Positions 40,216-45,604 of a stretch of DNA of 45,604 nt are shown here, piece by piece. This DNA comes from Escherichia coli (lineage in GTDB: Bacteria; Pseudomonadota; Gammaproteobacteria; Enterobacterales; Enterobacteriaceae): the NCBI RefSeq assembly GCF_003334335.1, contig NZ_QOWQ01000036.1. One strand, 5' to 3'. A program made the position numbers and the translations under genes. Position 1 is the stretch's first letter, and each line of letters opens with the position of its first letter. Below the pieces are notes generated by a model that did no database searches, was not told the origin of the DNA, and worked only from the letters and a program-made list of their open reading frames with translations.

Positions 40216-41634
40216 TTATTTCCCCTTCCGCGCCGCCTCATACGCTGCCAACGTTTGTACTCTCGCTTCTTTGTGCTCGACTATCGGTTGCGGATAATCC
40301 AGCGTCACACCTGCTTTCTGCGCCCACTTCCACGGCTCATGCACCACTTTCCCTGGCACATCGCGCAGTTCCGGTAGCCACTGGCGGATAAACTCGCCCT
40401 CATGATCAAATTTCTCGCCCTGGGTTGTCGGGTTGAAAATACGAAAATACGGCGCTGCATCGGTTCCGGTTGAAGCGGCCCACTGCCAGCCACCGTTATT
40501 GGCTGCCAAATCACCATCAATCAGCTGCGACATGAAATATCGCTCGCCTTCGCGCCAGTCGATCAATAAATCTTTCACCAGAAAACTGGCTGTAATCATC
40601 CGTAGCCTGTTATGCATCCAGCCAGTGCTGTTAAGCTGACGCATAGCGGCATCAACAATCGGGTATCCCGTTTTGCCTTCCTGCCAGGCCTGTAAATGTG
40701 CGGGATTGCTCTGCCACTGTACACGATCCGTCCAGGCAATAAATGGACGATGTTTACACAACGAGGGGTGATACGTTATCAGGTGACGGTAAAACTCGCG
40801 CCAGATCAGCTCATTAAGCCAGACACTACCGGCCCCACCGTCCAGCGCCTGCGGCTGTTCAGCCAACAAGCGATGCAAGCACTGGCGAGGCGATAACCCG
40901 CCCGTTGCCAGGCTGGCCGACAAACGGCTGGTGCCTTCCACTGCCGGAAAATCTCGTTGTTGCTCATATTCTCCGGCACCGTTCTGGCAAAACTGGCGTA
41001 ATTGCGCAATCGCCGCTTTTTCTTCCACCGGAAAATGCGCAGTATCGAAAGACTGACGAGGATAATTCAGCGTAATGGATGGCGAGGGCTCTATCGATCC
41101 GCTACTACGAACTTTTGGCGCAGCGACGCACTCCGGCATCCCTTCCCGCAGCCGTTTCAGCCAGGCATTCTTAAAAGGCGTAAAGACTTTGTACATCTCG
41201 TGATTACCGGTCATCACCGCGCCAGGCGGCAGGATCACGCTGTCATCAAATCCTTCACACACCACGTTACGCAGCGCTCTTTCAACTTCCACATCCCGCG
41301 CCCGCTCATTCACTTCATACTGATAGTTATAAAACAGGTGGGTAACGCTGTTTTCCGCGCACACCTGTTTAACTATTTCGACACTGGCGACAAAGTCATC
41401 CACTTCACGGAACAATAAAGGAATACCTTTTTCCGCAAGCGCTATTTGTAGCCCATTCAGTTGAGCATTGATAAGTTCAGCCTGACGCGGCGACATGTTA
41501 TGCGTCGCCCACTGGCGTGGTGTAGCGATATACAACGCCAGCACGCGTGCAGACGAATTGCGGCAGGCGGCAGCCAGTGCGAGATTATCGTGCAGACGTA
41601 AATCCTGGCGAAACCAGACCAGATGGGTAGTCAT
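40216..41634 (-). CDS. phr: Deoxyribodipyrimidine photolyase
   Basis: 472 aa; MTTHLVWFRQDLRLHDNLAL N-terminus, FAD-binding C-terminal domain. Confidence 0.95.
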   Translation of the reverse strand: MTTHLVWFRQDLRLHDNLALAAACRNSSARVLALYIATPRQWATHNMSPRQAELINAQLNGLQIALAEKGIPLLFREVDDFVASVEIVKQVCAENSVTHLFYNYQYEVNERARDVEVERALRNVVCEGFDDSVILPPGAVMTGNHEMYKVFTPFKNAWLKRLREGMPECVAAPKVRSSGSIEPSPSITLNYPRQSFDTAHFPVEEKAAIAQLRQFCQNGAGEYEQQRDFPAVEGTSRLSASLATGGLSPRQCLHRLLAEQPQALDGGAGSVWLNELIWREFYRHLITYHPSLCKHRPFIAWTDRVQWQSNPAHLQAWQEGKTGYPIVDAAMRQLNSTGWMHNRLRMITASFLVKDLLIDWREGERYFMSQLIDGDLAANNGGWQWAASTGTDAAPYFRIFNPTTQGEKFDHEGEFIRQWLPELRDVPGKVVHEPWKWAQKAGVTLDYPQPIVEHKEARVQTLAAYEAARKGK

Positions 41635-42140
41635 AAAACTCCTGAATGGCGCAAGTTAATCACACGCGGCCAAAGTTCGAAATAACGCTGCCCTGAAAGC
41701 CAGGCGTCAGGATAAAGCGCCATATAGTGTTTGATACGCATCAGCGGCGCAAGAAGTGGTTGCTCGCCACGGCGATAACTGTCGATAAGCGCAGCCAGCT
41801 GCTGGCGTTCTGTGGAATCAATATGCGGGCGAAAATAACCCTGAACGTGCATCAAAACATTGGTGTGATCGCGCGGGTTGGCGGGGTGAGAAAGCAAAAC
41901 AACTACGCGTTGGCGGTACTGGTTGTAATAGTCATCCAGATTTTGCCACTGGTGAATATCAGCCACGAACGGGCCAAGTTTGCGGTACTCCGGCTGAGAA
42001 TGCGCCAGAAAGACGAGTTTATAGCGGCTGTGATAATCGAGAAGCGCCCCGCGCGTTAAGCCATGTTCTTTCAGTCGATGTAACTCATGAAGGGCAAAGA
42101 TACGGATTAGGGTGCTGTCATCAAATCGTTGTAGATTCAT
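41631..42140 (-). CDS. ybgA: DUF1722-family protein co-transcribed with phr
   Basis: 169 aa; overlaps phr start by 4 nt. Confidence 0.88.
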   Translation of the reverse strand: MNLQRFDDSTLIRIFALHELHRLKEHGLTRGALLDYHSRYKLVFLAHSQPEYRKLGPFVADIHQWQNLDDYYNQYRQRVVVLLSHPANPRDHTNVLMHVQGYFRPHIDSTERQQLAALIDSYRRGEQPLLAPLMRIKHYMALYPDAWLSGQRYFELWPRVINLRHSGVL

Positions 42141-42287
42141 TACTGCTCCTGAGCGGTTTACAGGAGTAAGTGTAGACGTTGAGAAATGATATTTGTGAAG
42201 TTAATCCTGTTGTAGCAGGACAAATTTACGAAAGCCTGCTCCCCGCAAGGACTGACGTCAGGTAGTTTCTAACCATAGCTGCCCTTT

Positions 42288-43049
42288 CTATTCAAACGTG
42301 AAATCAATAAGTTCATCAGGGACATCGCAAACAATATGAAGACGGATTTCTTCTCTGCCGTGACTCTTTTCACTCATTGCGTAACTGTCATGCTCTGGAT
42401 TATTTAATTCTTTCAGCGGAAATTTTTCCTCAAAGGCTTTATTTAGCCGCCCCTGGTTTCCTTTTACCGCGAATAAATAATCACCTCCCTGTTTTTGTAT
42501 CTTCTCTGCAATATCTTTCTGGCAACCCATCGCATCAGTTGTGATGATTTTTCCTTTAATATCCAGCATGTTAAGAAGTTCAGGGATAGCTGTGATCTCA
42601 TTGGATTTCTTATCCGTCTTGATCTGCCCGATGACCAGACTGTGCATTGTTGAGAACGCACTAATGACATGAATCGCTCCCCTGCGGCGACTCTTGTCAT
42701 AAGAGTGCCGGAGCGTTTTTCCATCAATTGCAATGACGTCTTTATCATTTGATGAATGGCAATCACGCATCCAGTTAATAAAGCACTCGTGAAATTTTGC
42801 AGGACTGATACAGGATACAACTCTGGCAATAGTATCGTGAACAGGAATACCATTTTCAAAATCACCATATTGCTTCAAGAAATCGAGATGTGTTTCCCCG
42901 AAATCCTCTATATCTTCCCAACTTTCTGCACCAGAAATAACGGCAAAAATAGTCAATAGTAGGATGCCTGACAATTTATGCTCTACTTTCCAGGCTTATC
43001 TGTAATCGGGAATAATAGAAATATGTTCCATCAATTTTTTAAGTTCCAT
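42288..43049 (-). pseudogene. ybfD: H-repeat-associated transposase remnant, copy 1 (ybfD-like), in-frame TAA at codon 18 and 3'-truncated
   Basis: [17 protein letters not shown]-stop(42996-42998)[10 protein letters not shown]... then 228 codons; ends ...[12 protein letters not shown] where full-length ORF-H continues W-K-G-L. Confidence 0.75.
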
Positions 43050-43174
43050 TTGTTCACCTTATTTATGTAAGGAGTATTTGATCATGTATAAGCTATGAAA
43101 AACAGCTTTAGGTAATAAGGAATATCTCAATTTTTAAACATAAAATGCGAATTATTTAGTACAAAAAAGTAGCG

Positions 43175-43429
43175 TTACGTGATCTTTCCCTGGGATACAA
43201 CTCTGGCAATGGTATCGTGAACAGGAATACCATTTTCAAAATCACCATATTGCTTCAAAAAATCGAGATGTGTTTCCCCGAAATCCTCTATATCTTCCCA
43301 ACCTTCTGCACCAGAAATAACGGCACAAATAGTCAACAGTAGAATATCTGACAATTTATGCACCACTTTCCAGGCTTGTCTGTAATCGGGTGTAATAGAA
43401 ATATGTTCCATCAATTTTTTAAGTTCCAT
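43175..43429 (-). pseudogene. H-repeat transposase N-terminal fragment, copy 2 (84 codons)
   Basis: [22 protein letters not shown]...IARVVS then out-of-family QGKIT-stop created by the repeat junction. Confidence 0.8.
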
Positions 43430-43554
43430 TTGTTCACCTTATTTATGTAAGGAGTATTTGATCATGTATAAGCTATGAAAAACAGCTTTAGGTAATAAGG
43501 AATATCTCAATTTTTAAACATAAAATGCGAATTATTTAGTACAAAAAAGTAGCG

Positions 43555-43809
43555 TTACGTGATCTTTCCCTGGGATACAACTCTGGCAATGGTATCGTGA
43601 ACAGGAATACCATTTTCAAAATCACCATATTGCTTCAAAAAATCGAGATGTGTTTCCCCAAAATCCTCTATATCTTCCCAACCTTCTGCACCAGAAATAA
43701 CGGCACAAATAGTCAACAGTAGAATATCCGATAATTTATGTTCCACTTTCCAGGTTTGTCTGTAATCGGGGATAATAGAAATATGTTCCATCAATTTTTT
43801 AAGTTCCAT
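43555..43809 (-). pseudogene. H-repeat transposase N-terminal fragment, copy 3 (84 codons)
   Basis: Near-identical to copy 2 (I13, T19, E23 variants); same junction-derived C-terminus. Confidence 0.8.
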
Positions 43810-43951
43810 TTTGTTCTCCTTAATTAGGTAAGGAGTATTTGATCATGTATAAGCAATAAAAAACAGCTTCAGGTAATAAGGAATATCTCAATTTTTAAAC
43901 ATAAAATGCGAATTATTTAGTGCAAAAAGTGAACTTTTGATGATCTTTCCC

Positions 43952-44315
43952 TGGCCGTTGACTCGATTGCCGTAGCTCGAACGCAAGCACTCTTATCATT
44001 CAATGCCATATTGTTCAAAATATTAAAAACATTATCTTCGCATTTTTTGCAAATTTATATTTGCCCGAGTATAAATGCTCCGATATCTCTACGGATATAA
44101 TTTTTGTCAGTGCAGAATTCAATTGCCAATCTAACAGCGTCTTGCCCCCCTCTTAACTGTAATACTCTGGCAGATGAAATCCTTTTCAAGGAATTGCGAT
44201 CATCAAGTAAGCGAAATAATTCATCATCATTTAGTTTCTTACATTTATTATATAAACCATACTCTTTACTTGCCTTTCTTTTCTGGTATGTATTTGACAT
44301 TGCAGGAACCTCCAT
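43952..44315 (-). pseudogene. yibA-like HEAT-repeat (PBS-lyase type) gene remnant
   Basis: MSNTYQKRKASKEYGLYN...AFILGQI then TAA (44055-44057); homology continues in frame (ICKKCEDNVFNILNNMALNDKSACVRATAIESTA) to ~43953 where the H-rpt terminus begins. Confidence 0.7.
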
Positions 44316-44509
44316 AAAGGCTATCTTTTTCTATCGTTTGACTGTCTGGAGTCCTCCACCTACTCTGCCATCAGCGCACACGATGTTTGATTATCCTTAC
44401 ATACTTATTTTCCGTGGCCAAAATTCAGAATTCTCCCATCATTTTTGCCTATTTCTATAATAAAAACCCCACCAGCAATTTGGTCTGAGTGAATGGTACC
44501 TTCAACAAC

Positions 44510-44752
44510 TCAACTTGTTGTTAACTCAGTGATTTCGTATGGTTTTTCTTCTTCTGCGGCATCCTGTCCATAACGATTCTTAACATATATCTCAGCTAAT
44601 TCCAATGCTATAGCTTTATTTTTAACCAAATTTCTAACGGTATATTTACCTTCACTTTCATACTTGCGCATTATTTTAATATTATTATTACACTGCGCCC
44701 ATGTGTTGTATGTAAAAACAAACAAAGATACAATGACACAGTTCCTAAACAA
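44510..44752 (-). CDS. Small secreted protein, candidate Rhs immunity protein
   Basis: 80-aa ORF 6 nt downstream of the Rhs tip stop; N-terminal signal-peptide-like segment (MFRNCVIVSLFVFTYNTWA); AT-rich like the tip. Confidence 0.5.
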   Translation of the reverse strand: MFRNCVIVSLFVFTYNTWAQCNNNIKIMRKYESEGKYTVRNLVKNKAIALELAEIYVKNRYGQDAAEEEKPYEITELTTS

Positions 44753-44758
44753 TATTTT

Positions 44759-45604
44759 TTACATATTACCATGAACTCTGCAGACATTAGGTAATCCTTT
44801 TCTGTTTGTTATTTCCTTCCCGTGGTTATCTATTGCTTTAAAATTACCACTGGGCGTACCTAAATAAAATGACTTGATATTGTTATCTTTACTTTTAACT
44901 ATTTTCTCATCTTTACCTGAAAATATTTCGTCCCAATATTCTCCATGACTATCTGCACCATGAGTATGATAAGCTGATACTTTCTCAGTACCATTAGGGC
45001 AAGGGCTATTGAATGGATATGATCCTTTTCTTTCTCCTCGGTTAGGTGCTGTTGAGAAATATCTGCCACTATTATCCTTACATATTAAACCAGCGAACTC
45101 TTTATCTTCGCAAATAGATTGGCTATTTATTTTATTTAAGGCGCCATATGCGGTGCTATCTATAGAATCAAATTTATCTGGACCTATCATAGCGGATAGT
45201 GTGCCGCAAAGACCATTAGTACATGCCCCCGATTTTGCATCCTCCCACATAGATAAACCCAGGGGGTCGATGTCTGATATCGGATTCAATTGATATCCAT
45301 ACAGGTTCCATCCCCCCTTCAGTCCAATCGGATCCTGAGTGATATATCGCCCCTGCAGCGGGTCATAATAGCGGTGGCGGTTGTAATACAGGCCGGACTC
45401 CTCATCATACTGCTGCCCCGGCAGCCGGATAAGCTGCTGCAGCTGATGCGGGTTCTCTTCATTCAGCAGGTTGCCCCATTCATCATATTCTGCGCACCAC
45501 GCTGTTGCCCCTTCCGTGCTGATGAGCGCCAGCGGCAGGCCGCGATGGTCGCAGTGGTACAGGTGGATTTTTCGCGCCGGCGTGTACACCGGGTCCATCT
45601 GGTT
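44759..45604 (-). CDS. Rhs protein C-terminal part: end of conserved core plus ~164-aa variable tip (putative toxin); 5' end outside window
   Basis: Core-end signature ...[39 protein letters not shown]; abrupt GC-rich to AT-rich switch at ~45254; Cys/His-rich tip; reading frame runs to the window edge. Confidence 0.85.

Follow-up and report, generated by a model that had tools for sequence, protein, structure and literature searches.

The closest described relatives of the tandem array considered here are the Rhs-linked H-repeats of Escherichia coli K-12. Downstream of RhsC, three copies, H-rptC1, H-rptC2 and H-rptC3 (ybfQ, ybfL and ybfD), were reportedly described by Zhao, Sandt, Feulner, Vlazny, Gray and Hill in J Bacteriol in 1993. 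In MG1655 this cluster reads as nt 1-381 of the element, a full copy (nt 1-1291), and nt 25-913 joined across a deletion to nt 1225-1291. At RhsB, ISEc1/H-rptB (yhhI) spans its full 1291 bp, carries yhhI as an intact gene of 378 codons, and is delimited by a left inverted repeat (IRL, CAGGGAAAGATCA) that resembles the reverse complement of the right one (IRR, CAGGGCAAGATTA). A promoter-like element, TTTTCA-17-AATACT, has been proposed upstream of K-12 ybfQ from in vitro binding of the RNA polymerase holoenzyme (PMC3946193). The E. coli W genome paper (PMC3032704) states that no H-repeat has ever been seen to transpose. Neither a bioRxiv mobilome paper nor a C. elegans ybfQ paper contained anything on an H-repeat mechanism.

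We analysed a 45,604-nt stretch of E. coli DNA (contig NZ_QOWQ01000036.1 of assembly GCF_003334335.1; hereafter the window), in which three head-to-tail units of 380/381 bp occupy positions 42813-43953 on the minus strand (Table 1). TRF reported the tandem array at 42813-43954 (period 380, 3.0 copies, score 2042) and a repeat search of the window returned spacings of 380 and 380/381, such that self-comparison recovered the three co-linear units with the same junction that a preliminary description of this DNA had noted. Each unit corresponds to nt 1-381 of an H-repeat (ISEc1, ISAs1 family) and comprises the left inverted repeat CAGGGAAAGATCA, which opens every unit (43953, 43572 and 43192), a leader and 79 codons. 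The 143-144 nt from unit end to coding region, the minus-strand ATG in each unit, and the QGKIT-stop tail encoded by the inverted repeat of the unit that follows all agreed with that description, and the assignment as H-repeat 5' ends was borne out by matches to H-rptB, Pfam DDE_Tnp_1_assoc (PF13808, residues 8-80 of the 84-aa ORF of unit 2) and NCBIfam transpos_ISAs1. The description of an exact 380-bp triplication held for the number of units but not for their exactness: they are 92-97% alike (units 2 and 3, 96.6%; 1 and 2, 93.7%; 1 and 3, 91.6%), and unit 1 exceeds the others by 1 nt.

Table 1. Positions of the H-repeat units, their junctions and signals, and the flanking genes in the window.
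Feature	Position	Strand	Description	Basis
ybgA, then phrB	41631..42140	-	Downstream flank; normal neighbours of the RhsC H-repeat cluster	ORFs and matching-genome annotation
Unit 3 and remainder of last H-repeat	42216..43192	-	ybfD/ybfL-like pseudogene	BLAST against H-rptB
Unit 3 proper	42813-43192	-	380-nt part; IRL 43180-43192; ATG 43049	
Junction of units 2 and 3	43193/43192 (feature 43180..43205)	-	H-rpt nt 380/381 (...GTTGTATCC) joined to IRL nt 1 (CAGGGAAAGATCA...)	
Unit 2	43193..43572	-	H-repeat nt 1-380, chimera; IRL 43560-43572	
Unit 2 ORF	43175-43429	-	ATG 43429; product is K-12 YbfQ (100%)	
Junction of units 1 and 2	43573/43572	-	Same join as between units 2 and 3	
Unit 1	43573..43953	-	H-repeat nt 1-381, RhsB (yhhI/ISEc1) type; IRL 43941-43953; ATG 43809	
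Unit 1 ORF	43555-43809	-	84 codons: YhhI residues 1-79 plus QGKIT	
Promoter-like TTTTCA-17-AATACT	43453-43481; 43073-43101	-	Leaders of units 2 and 3, respectively	
Promoter-like variant TTTTTA	43834-43862	-	Unit 1	
Shine-Dalgarno and ATG	43807-43821; 43427-43440; 43047-43060	-	Units 1, 2 and 3, respectively	
267-bp exact repeat	43013-43279; 43393-43659		Spans each junction	
Truncated HEAT-repeat/lyase-like gene	44055..44315	-	yrhC-like pseudogene; upstream flank	
Rhs core 3' end	44759..45604	-	RhsB-type C-terminal tip; upstream flank; cut off by window end	

Sequence comparison supported the earlier suspicion that the arrangement might already be described: the array is the known Rhs-linked H-repeat remnant cluster (ybfQ/ybfL/ybfD in K-12) with one additional 380-bp unit. 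The K-12 H-rptC cluster and the window have in common the site next to ybgA-phrB, the element itself, the junction of nt 381 with nt 1, YbfQ as the product of the window's unit 2, and the 311-bp deletion and right end of the last copy. Compared with the MG1655 order given above, the window reads as nt 1-381, nt 1-380, and nt 1-913 followed by the deletion and nt 1225-1291. The two also differ at the upstream side, where the ybfO-ybfC flank and C1-type first unit of K-12 are lacking in the window and an RhsB-type tip, yhhH-like and yrhC-like genes, and an H-rptB-type unit are found instead. The array lies between Rhs C-terminal tip/immunity modules and ybgA-phrB (from ORFs and matching-genome annotation). 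The Rhs core 3' end was 99.8% identical to K-12 rhsB and matched the RHS_core and Rhs_assc_core profiles; the yrhC-like pseudogene, which RefSeq annotates on identical DNA, matched NCBIfam PRK09687 (profile positions 1-81 of 285) and has its K-12 counterpart downstream of rhsB-yhhH. Unit 1 was 100% identical to K-12 H-rptB, as were the 133 bp of upstream flank compared with it, and unit 1 with at least 1.6 kb upstream was 99.8-100% identical to the K-12 segment from the RhsB 3' end through yhhH and yrhC to the H-rptB 5' end. However, whereas H-rptB continues to its right end in K-12, the window's copy stops at nt 381 and another left end follows. A comparable flank next to ybgA was found in MT102 only.

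The array copies are defective H-repeat remnants, either fragments or pseudogenes, and none of the three has both ends together with an uninterrupted transposase gene, as an intact mobile copy would. Units 1 and 2 break off at nt 381 and nt 380, respectively, while the last copy consists of nt 1-913, a 311-bp deletion (H-rpt nt 914-1224; join 42281/42282), and nt 1225-1291 up to an IRR-like right end at 42216. This last copy (copy 1 of the preliminary description, our unit 3) was said to be the only one to continue into the transposase body, which is correct for the DNA but not for the reading frame: a TAA at codon 18 (42998-42996) and the 311-bp deletion interrupt it, the coding stretch ends after ~251 of 378 codons, and the copy cannot be considered intact. 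Its 228-aa ORF matched NCBIfam NF033564 transpos_ISAs1 at 293 bits (profile positions 1-220 of 314). The 5' 380 nt of the last copy are identical to those of K-12 C2, and its body, which has two strain-specific sites, is of C2 type to nt 882 and of C3 type from nt 905, locating a crossover at 42312-42289.

The two junctions of the array are, as had been claimed, identical over at least 50 nt, and both also match the MG1655 junction of C1 with C2 (ybfQ with ybfL). Searching 5426 complete E. coli genomes with a 120-bp probe across the junction at a strict E-value, we found it in 2440 (45%) at ≥99% identity, where it is annotated as ybfQ; the sites totalled 2447, with a maximum of two and almost always one per genome, and the junction had no match in any other species representative, nor at another locus. 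Because it is single-copy in nearly all 2440 carriers, the junction was made once and inherited rather than re-made, and these genome comparisons establish, at the level of sequence, a single origin followed by inheritance as a truncated ybfQ end. The founding join took place in an ancestral E. coli, and we infer that it was most probably a transposase-type event, because the downstream partner begins exactly at its terminal nucleotide. No direct repeat (target-site duplication) that would support simple insertion was seen flanking H-rptB or K-12 C2; the sequences bordering C2 are two different H-rpt types, and in MG1655 its right end (IRR) abuts nt 25 of C3 and not a continuation of C1. Simple nested insertion was rejected as a sufficient source of the first junction: C1, which reaches nt 381, and C3, which begins at nt 25, have 357 nt of the element in common at only 93% identity, so they are not two halves of one target element.

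In our judgement, the locus probably represents ordinary H-repeat remnants in which an array with a junction of single origin was lengthened in the cell by unequal homologous recombination. After the founding event, array length would have changed by ordinary homologous recombination among H-rpt copies, tandem as well as ectopic, that had diverged. Unequal crossing-over of unit 1 (C1) with the following element (C2) at its 5' end would gain a chimeric C2/C1 unit and copy the junction, and a C2 x C3 crossover would remove the full-length copy. Recombination in the 86 identical bp at the end of the unit would place the 5' end of an RhsB-type H-rpt, together with its flank, ahead of the array. 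Unequal recombination, already raised in the preliminary description, is favoured by the middle unit, a chimera of its neighbours' types, and by other three-unit arrays with different crossover points. In the variable-site table, unit 2 was of K-12 C2 type in its leader (columns 1-82) and of C1 type in its coding part (columns 183-380), with the switch inside the 100 identical bp that separate the two parts, a pattern that a graph-walk artefact would also yield.

Related genomes carried copy-number polymorphism with independent events. A 500-bp two-junction probe located three-unit arrays in five complete genomes, namely K-12 GM4792 and the field isolates ECCTRSRTH03, NT1F31, W444 and LCP22S3_I2, making such arrays very rare (~5 of 5426); a match in XL1-Blue was dropped, as it lay in a record tail of concatenated repeat fragments. 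The number of IRL-bounded units was one in MT102, two in DH1 and MG1655, and three in GM4792, ECCTRSRTH03 and NT1F31. All five three-unit genomes resembled the window in the 380-bp spacing of their two junctions and in having a C2/C1 chimera as the middle unit, and unit 2 of GM4792 was identical to that of the window. Their middle units changed type in three different intervals, with one arrangement common to NT1F31, W444 and LCP22S3_I2, so that the alignments document not only the identity of the units and the chimeric middle unit but also recurrent expansion in other genomes. Unlike the window, GM4792, ECCTRSRTH03 and the NT1F31 group were still flanked by ybfC and began with a C1-type unit; in ECCTRSRTH03 and the NT1F31 group the crossover intervals differed from the window's, and full-length C2 was retained in GM4792 and NT1F31. 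The full-length copy was missing in DH1 as well as in the window, the C2 x C3 crossovers lying at different sites.

A possible alternative, to which we give a lower but appreciable probability, is that the arrangement was produced during assembly from an isolate whose RhsC array has the usual K-12-like form (ybfC-C1-C2/C3) and is separate from its RhsB locus. An assembler walking from the RhsB flank through the H-rptB 5' end, the common 86-bp segment and the junction to the C2 leader, and from there through the common 100-bp segment to the C1 coding part, the junction and C2, would yield both the additional unit and the RhsB-type first unit. The window resembles a whole k=77 de Bruijn contig (77 is a SPAdes default): it opens with 77 nt that recur exactly at 306-382 (tRNA-Val), and it ends in the Rhs core repeat, the last 80-142 nt being exactly as in K-12 rhsC and rhsA. 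All 78-mers of 42535-44432 are present in the RhsC and RhsB loci of K-12 (MG1655), novel joins becoming visible only with 128-mers (43365-43519 and 43533-43699), and the exact repeat within which both junctions sit is more than three times as long as the inferred k. Neither an RhsB-type unit followed by the junction nor the window's whole arrangement occurred in any of the 5426 complete genomes (whole-array and unit-1-plus-junction queries are hard to interpret, as overlapping pieces from single-copy loci were merged). Among metagenomes, eight of nine matches to a pattern of RhsB-type unit then junction were canonical arrays, the pattern not being specific, as T at unit nt 295 is found in ordinary C1 alleles too. 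A similarly suspicious join, of an RhsE-locus H-rpt to the junction, was found only in a 3.2-kb short-read metagenome contig (L020) and in no complete genome.

However, an artefact would require two separate unsupported assembler choices at common segments (86 and 100 bp) that single 150-nt reads, a length suggested by k=77, could span, and genuine arrays of three units are present in five complete genomes, one arrangement being common to three of these. The two private inactivating changes in the yhhH-like gene beside unit 1 would fit a decaying orphan module, without proving its linkage to the array. Moreover, the three units differ mutually, and allele combinations within 11-23 nt of each other in the window are absent from MG1655; therefore at least part of the locus is real strain-specific sequence. 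While we infer that the window's events took place in the cell and not in the assembler, the k=77-like contig and the presence of all array 78-mers in K-12 mean that copy number and linkage need read-level confirmation. Whether the extra unit came from unequal recombination or from a short-read assembly error, the array is therefore ordinary, and it serves as a warning not to trust a k=77 short-read contig across 380-bp tandem units that contain an exact repeat of 267 bp.

The H-repeat fragments have no required function. The possible leader promoter noted earlier is plausible, given that the element proposed for K-12 ybfQ (PMC3946193) is found in units 2 and 3; it fits 8 of 12 consensus positions and was missed by a simple promoter scan, and a promoter belonging to the element itself may drive expression of the 84-codon ORFs. 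It is very unlikely that the additional units are kept by selection for YbfQ-like 84-residue N-terminal fragments that are made and active, for instance in regulating ISAs1-family transposition in trans or as a DNA-binding protein that has become domesticated. Two intact 84-codon ORFs do cover most of the DDE_Tnp_1_assoc domain, each preceded by a Shine-Dalgarno sequence and a promoter-like element, and YbfQ is kept at ≥99% DNA identity in 2430 genomes; however, this conservation is what recent common descent would produce, three-unit arrays are very rare, and the middle unit of several of them has the codon-18 stop. Equally improbable is that such N-terminal transposase fragments, expressed from the promoter of the element, act in trans, for instance by repressing ISAs1/H-repeat transposition or as a DNA-binding factor domesticated near Rhs toxin loci, in which case a change in unit number would mean a change in dosage.

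Least credible of all is repeated terminus-to-internal-site joining, as put forward in the preliminary description, with the H-repeat transposase making each junction separately at a preferred internal site (nt 381): the junction does coincide exactly with nt 1 of the inverted repeat, and K-12 offers another case of a terminus joined to an internal site (C2 IRR to C3 nt 25). Against this, both of the window's junctions lie within the 267-bp exact repeat, the middle unit cleanly combines its neighbours' types, H-rpt transposition is not on record (PMC3032704), and 45% of E. coli genomes carry this junction as one inherited feature, absent from other loci and species.

The common junction is thus an inherited scar (ybfQ) and not evidence of unusual transposase behaviour, and the locus itself, textbook decayed insertion-sequence copies beside an Rhs element, matters little. 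Because diverged units make its crossover points readable, it is nevertheless handy as a natural marker, both in lineage typing and in following how H-repeats recombine unequally or ectopically. General, RecA-type unequal crossing-over between direct repeats gains one unit, keeps the period and leaves a chimeric unit, as in the array, and it gives copy-number polymorphism among strains and unit loss by the reverse reaction, as at the H-rpt locus; compared with this general process, the array is special only in that its unit is bounded by an insertion-sequence terminus.

Tandem Repeats Finder delineated one array (period 380, 3.0 copies, 95% matches, score 2042), and a direct-repeat search returned three copies at spacings of 380 and 380/381 bp. 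Each unit comprises, on the minus strand, a leader of 143-144 nt followed by 79 codons starting MELKKLMEH, and the unit reading frame crosses the junction into the next unit and terminates ...QGKIT-stop. The two junction strings are identical, and together with the repeat searches they match the three head-to-tail units, shared junction and recurring start codons of the preliminary description. The triplication had also been called exact; however, pairwise identities between units are only 96.6%, 93.7% and 91.6%, and lengths differ by 1 nt. As reference for the region we used the 1291-bp H-repeat of K-12 RhsB (H-rptB; RefSeq "ISAs1-like element ISEc1"; gene yhhI). All three units correspond to its nt 1-381, and the left terminus (CAGGGAAAGATCA; the right one, as reverse complement, is CAGGGCAAGATTA) sits at the first nucleotide of every unit. 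In the 84-residue products, residues 8-80 match Pfam DDE_Tnp_1_assoc. Unit 3 begins the last H-repeat copy, which had been said to continue into the transposase body, but this copy has no open transposase gene: it carries TAA at codon 18 and is missing 311 bp of the element. Its longest ORF is an internal piece of 228 codons, whose product matches positions 1-220 of the 314-position NCBIfam transpos_ISAs1 profile.

Coordinates of the array, the last H-repeat copy and neighbouring features (window positions unless an accession is given)
Feature	Position	Strand	Detail
Array	42813-43954	minus	
Unit 1	43573-43953	minus	
Unit 2	43193-43572	minus	
Unit 3	42813-43192	minus	
Unit ATGs	43809, 43429, 43049	minus	
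Junctions	43573/43572, 43193/43192	minus	
Last H-repeat copy	42216-43192	minus	nt 1-913, jump to nt 1225, through nt 1291 (window 42216); 75 bp before ybgA
TAA, codon 18 of last copy	42998-42996	minus	
Terminator-like hairpin	43263-43281 (unit 2), 42883-42901 (unit 3)	minus	
Novel joins	43365-43519, 43533-43699		
yhhH-like gene	44405-44788	minus	
1-bp deletion in yhhH-like gene	44760		in A-run
TGG to TGA in yhhH-like gene	44510		
Substitution in Rhs tip	45144		
Rhs core at window end	45463-45604		
Second K-12 terminus-to-internal junction	NC_000913.3, about 737972		

We assessed the distribution of the junction with a junction-centred probe of 120 bp, under an E-value limit that shuts out half matches. 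Matches were obtained in 2440 of 5426 complete E. coli genomes, 2430 of them with identity of at least 99%, at 2447 places with a maximum of two per genome, and among the 60 records listed these places were annotated as ybfQ or as an unnamed ISAs1-family or transposase fragment. The exact 28-nt junction pattern was absent from other species representatives (100,044 genomes), the single match being mis-binned E. coli DNA. That match lies in a 2.4-kb contig (JARKOR010000224.1) of a MAG labelled Candidatus Nanosynbacter, and its 98-99% identity to E. coli K-12 ybfO-ybfC-ybfQ marks contamination or mis-binning. Because the junction occurs about once per genome in these E. coli and is absent from the other species representatives, a single old event explains it, and it is inherited rather than re-made. 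Given that the first base of the downstream partner is nt 1 of the inverted repeat, the original event was probably a transposase-type reaction, either insertion into a copy already present or end-mediated deletion of adjacent DNA; no target duplication was found at the junction. K-12 has a second terminus-to-internal junction: in MG1655, the right inverted repeat of H-rptC2 (ybfL) is directly joined to nt 25 of H-rptC3 (ybfD). C2 is itself a complete element, with pieces of two other H-repeat types on either side and without target duplication; H-rptC1 (ybfQ) and C3 are only 93% alike across their 357-nt overlap.

Typing of the units by variable sites indicated how the array changes length. 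Unit 3 is of the K-12 C2 type (380/380) and unit 1 of the H-rptB type (381/381), as is its upstream flank, while unit 2 changes from the C2 type (to column 82) to the C1 type (from column 183) across 100 identical bp. Pairing between C1 of one chromatid and the C2 5' end of the other would be expected to give exactly this chimera. When complete genomes were searched with a 500-bp two-junction probe, scoring three-unit arrays as single co-linear matches, such arrays were found in five (K-12 GM4792, ECCTRSRTH03, NT1F31, W444 and LCP22S3_I2). In their middle units the type changes at columns 82-183, about 272-287 or after about 372, and these three different intervals imply that expansion happened at least three times. 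Of the two mechanisms initially proposed, unequal recombination is thus supported by the chimeric unit and the switch intervals, whereas repeated terminus-to-internal joining is not supported, the junction being inherited. The array also contracts: C2xC3 crossovers removed the full-length copy in DH1 (at nt 750-762) and in the window (at nt 882-905). DH1 has one H-repeat copy fewer than MG1655, and GM4792 has a 380-bp unit more, so that even laboratory K-12 lines show instability of the array or variation in its assembly. The nominally complete record of E. coli XL1-Blue (NZ_CP081007.1 4644202-4656680) ends in a string of short tRNA, Rhs, IS-element and phage gene fragments, which look like repeat contigs left unplaced and then added to the chromosome, so that matches there are no evidence of structure.

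We considered whether the array in the window is an assembly artefact, made by a wrong walk across the graph of repeats in an ordinary genome, which we regard as a doubtful but appreciable possibility. Positions 1-77 of the window duplicate 306-382 exactly, within a repeated tRNA-Val gene, and its last 80 and 142 nt are common, exactly, to K-12 rhsC and rhsA, the end being Rhs core that matches other K-12 Rhs genes exactly. Such ends have the look of a complete contig from a k=77 de Bruijn assembly, and the window probably represents a short-read contig in full rather than part of a finished chromosome. Moreover, the MG1655 RhsC and RhsB loci contain every 78-mer of 42535-44432, the two novel joins are visible only at 128-mers, and the array holds a 267-bp exact repeat; the same sequence could therefore come from a wrong walk. 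Neither the whole arrangement nor an RhsB-type unit followed by the junction occurs in any of the 5426 complete E. coli genomes. One metagenome contig (OGLK01001378.1, 3182 bp), and no complete genome, has a comparable join, from an RhsE-locus H-repeat to the junction; complete genomes have a single H-repeat at the RhsE-type site. However, single 150-nt reads (a length inferred from k=77) would span the shared segments of 86 and 100 bp, three-unit arrays exist in complete genomes, and the window locus has allele combinations 11-23 nt apart that are absent from K-12. Either ordinary homologous recombination produced the extra unit as a minor structural variant, or the unit is an assembly path.

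Two other records have unusual arrangements. OGLK01001378.1 comprises an RhsE-type locus (Rhs tip, immunity gene, ISEc5-like fragment), an H-repeat 5' unit with the same QGKIT junction and then a second left end, and represents a further rare recombinant or else a chimeric walk through short reads. An RhsB-type flank beside ybgA was found only in MT102, with a single H-repeat. The RhsC locus of this strain (NZ_CP034953.2 3123244-3137384) runs from rhsC-ybfB through an orphan with a type-34 toxin tip and a yibA-like HEAT gene to an RhsB-type orphan tip with yhhH, a truncated HEAT gene and a single H-rptB/C3 hybrid adjoining ybgA. No other of the 5426 genomes has this mosaic of RhsC, RhsA-like and RhsB modules, which stems either from recombination in several steps or from an assembly path across repeats.

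At unit nt 92-120, units 2 and 3 contain TTTTCA-17-AATACT, with AAGGTG and the ATG after it; in unit 1 the -35 sequence is a weaker variant. A K-12 survey of RNA polymerase holoenzyme binding lists the motif of units 2 and 3 upstream of ybfQ (PMC3946193); a simple consensus promoter scan listed none of the three unit elements. Because the promoter-like motif, AAGGTG and ATG are present, short transcripts and an 84-residue N-terminal transposase fragment, as first suggested, are possible from the sequence. Selection for dosage is argued against by the rarity of three-unit arrays and by stop codons in several middle units. Within the coding part of units 2 and 3 lies a terminator-like hairpin with a T-run (TCGGGGAAACACATCTCGA TTTTTT), a weak consensus match, whose unit 1 counterpart has T at the second stem position.

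H-repeats have been placed downstream of rhs genes, and no transposition of them has been observed (E. coli W genome paper, PMC3032704). The array is flanked by phrB and ybgA on one side and by a truncated HEAT-repeat gene, a yhhH-like gene and the 3' end of an Rhs gene on the other. The downstream 25 kb are essentially identical to K-12-like strains, and the upstream 1.65 kb have 99.8% identity to K-12 RhsB-yhhH-yrhC. Relative to K-12, two changes (a deletion and a TGA codon) inactivate the yhhH-like immunity gene beside the toxin tip of RhsB type; the tip has a single substitution, and its ORF is open as far as the window end. In annotated E. coli genomes, the corresponding site lies downstream of RhsC and holds ybfQ, ybfL and ybfD, and Zhao et al. 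(J Bacteriol 1993) reportedly described three tandem defective H-repeat copies at RhsC. The MG1655 layout is nt 1-381 (ybfQ), nt 1-1291 (ybfL) and nt 25-913, a deletion and 1225-1291 (ybfD), with ybfL sharing the codon-18 stop of the last copy in the window. The MG1655 C1-C2 junction equals both window junctions base for base, and the product of unit 2 is identical to K-12 YbfQ. The locus, the element and the junction are all already known, and the middle unit of K-12 GM4792 is identical to that of the window.
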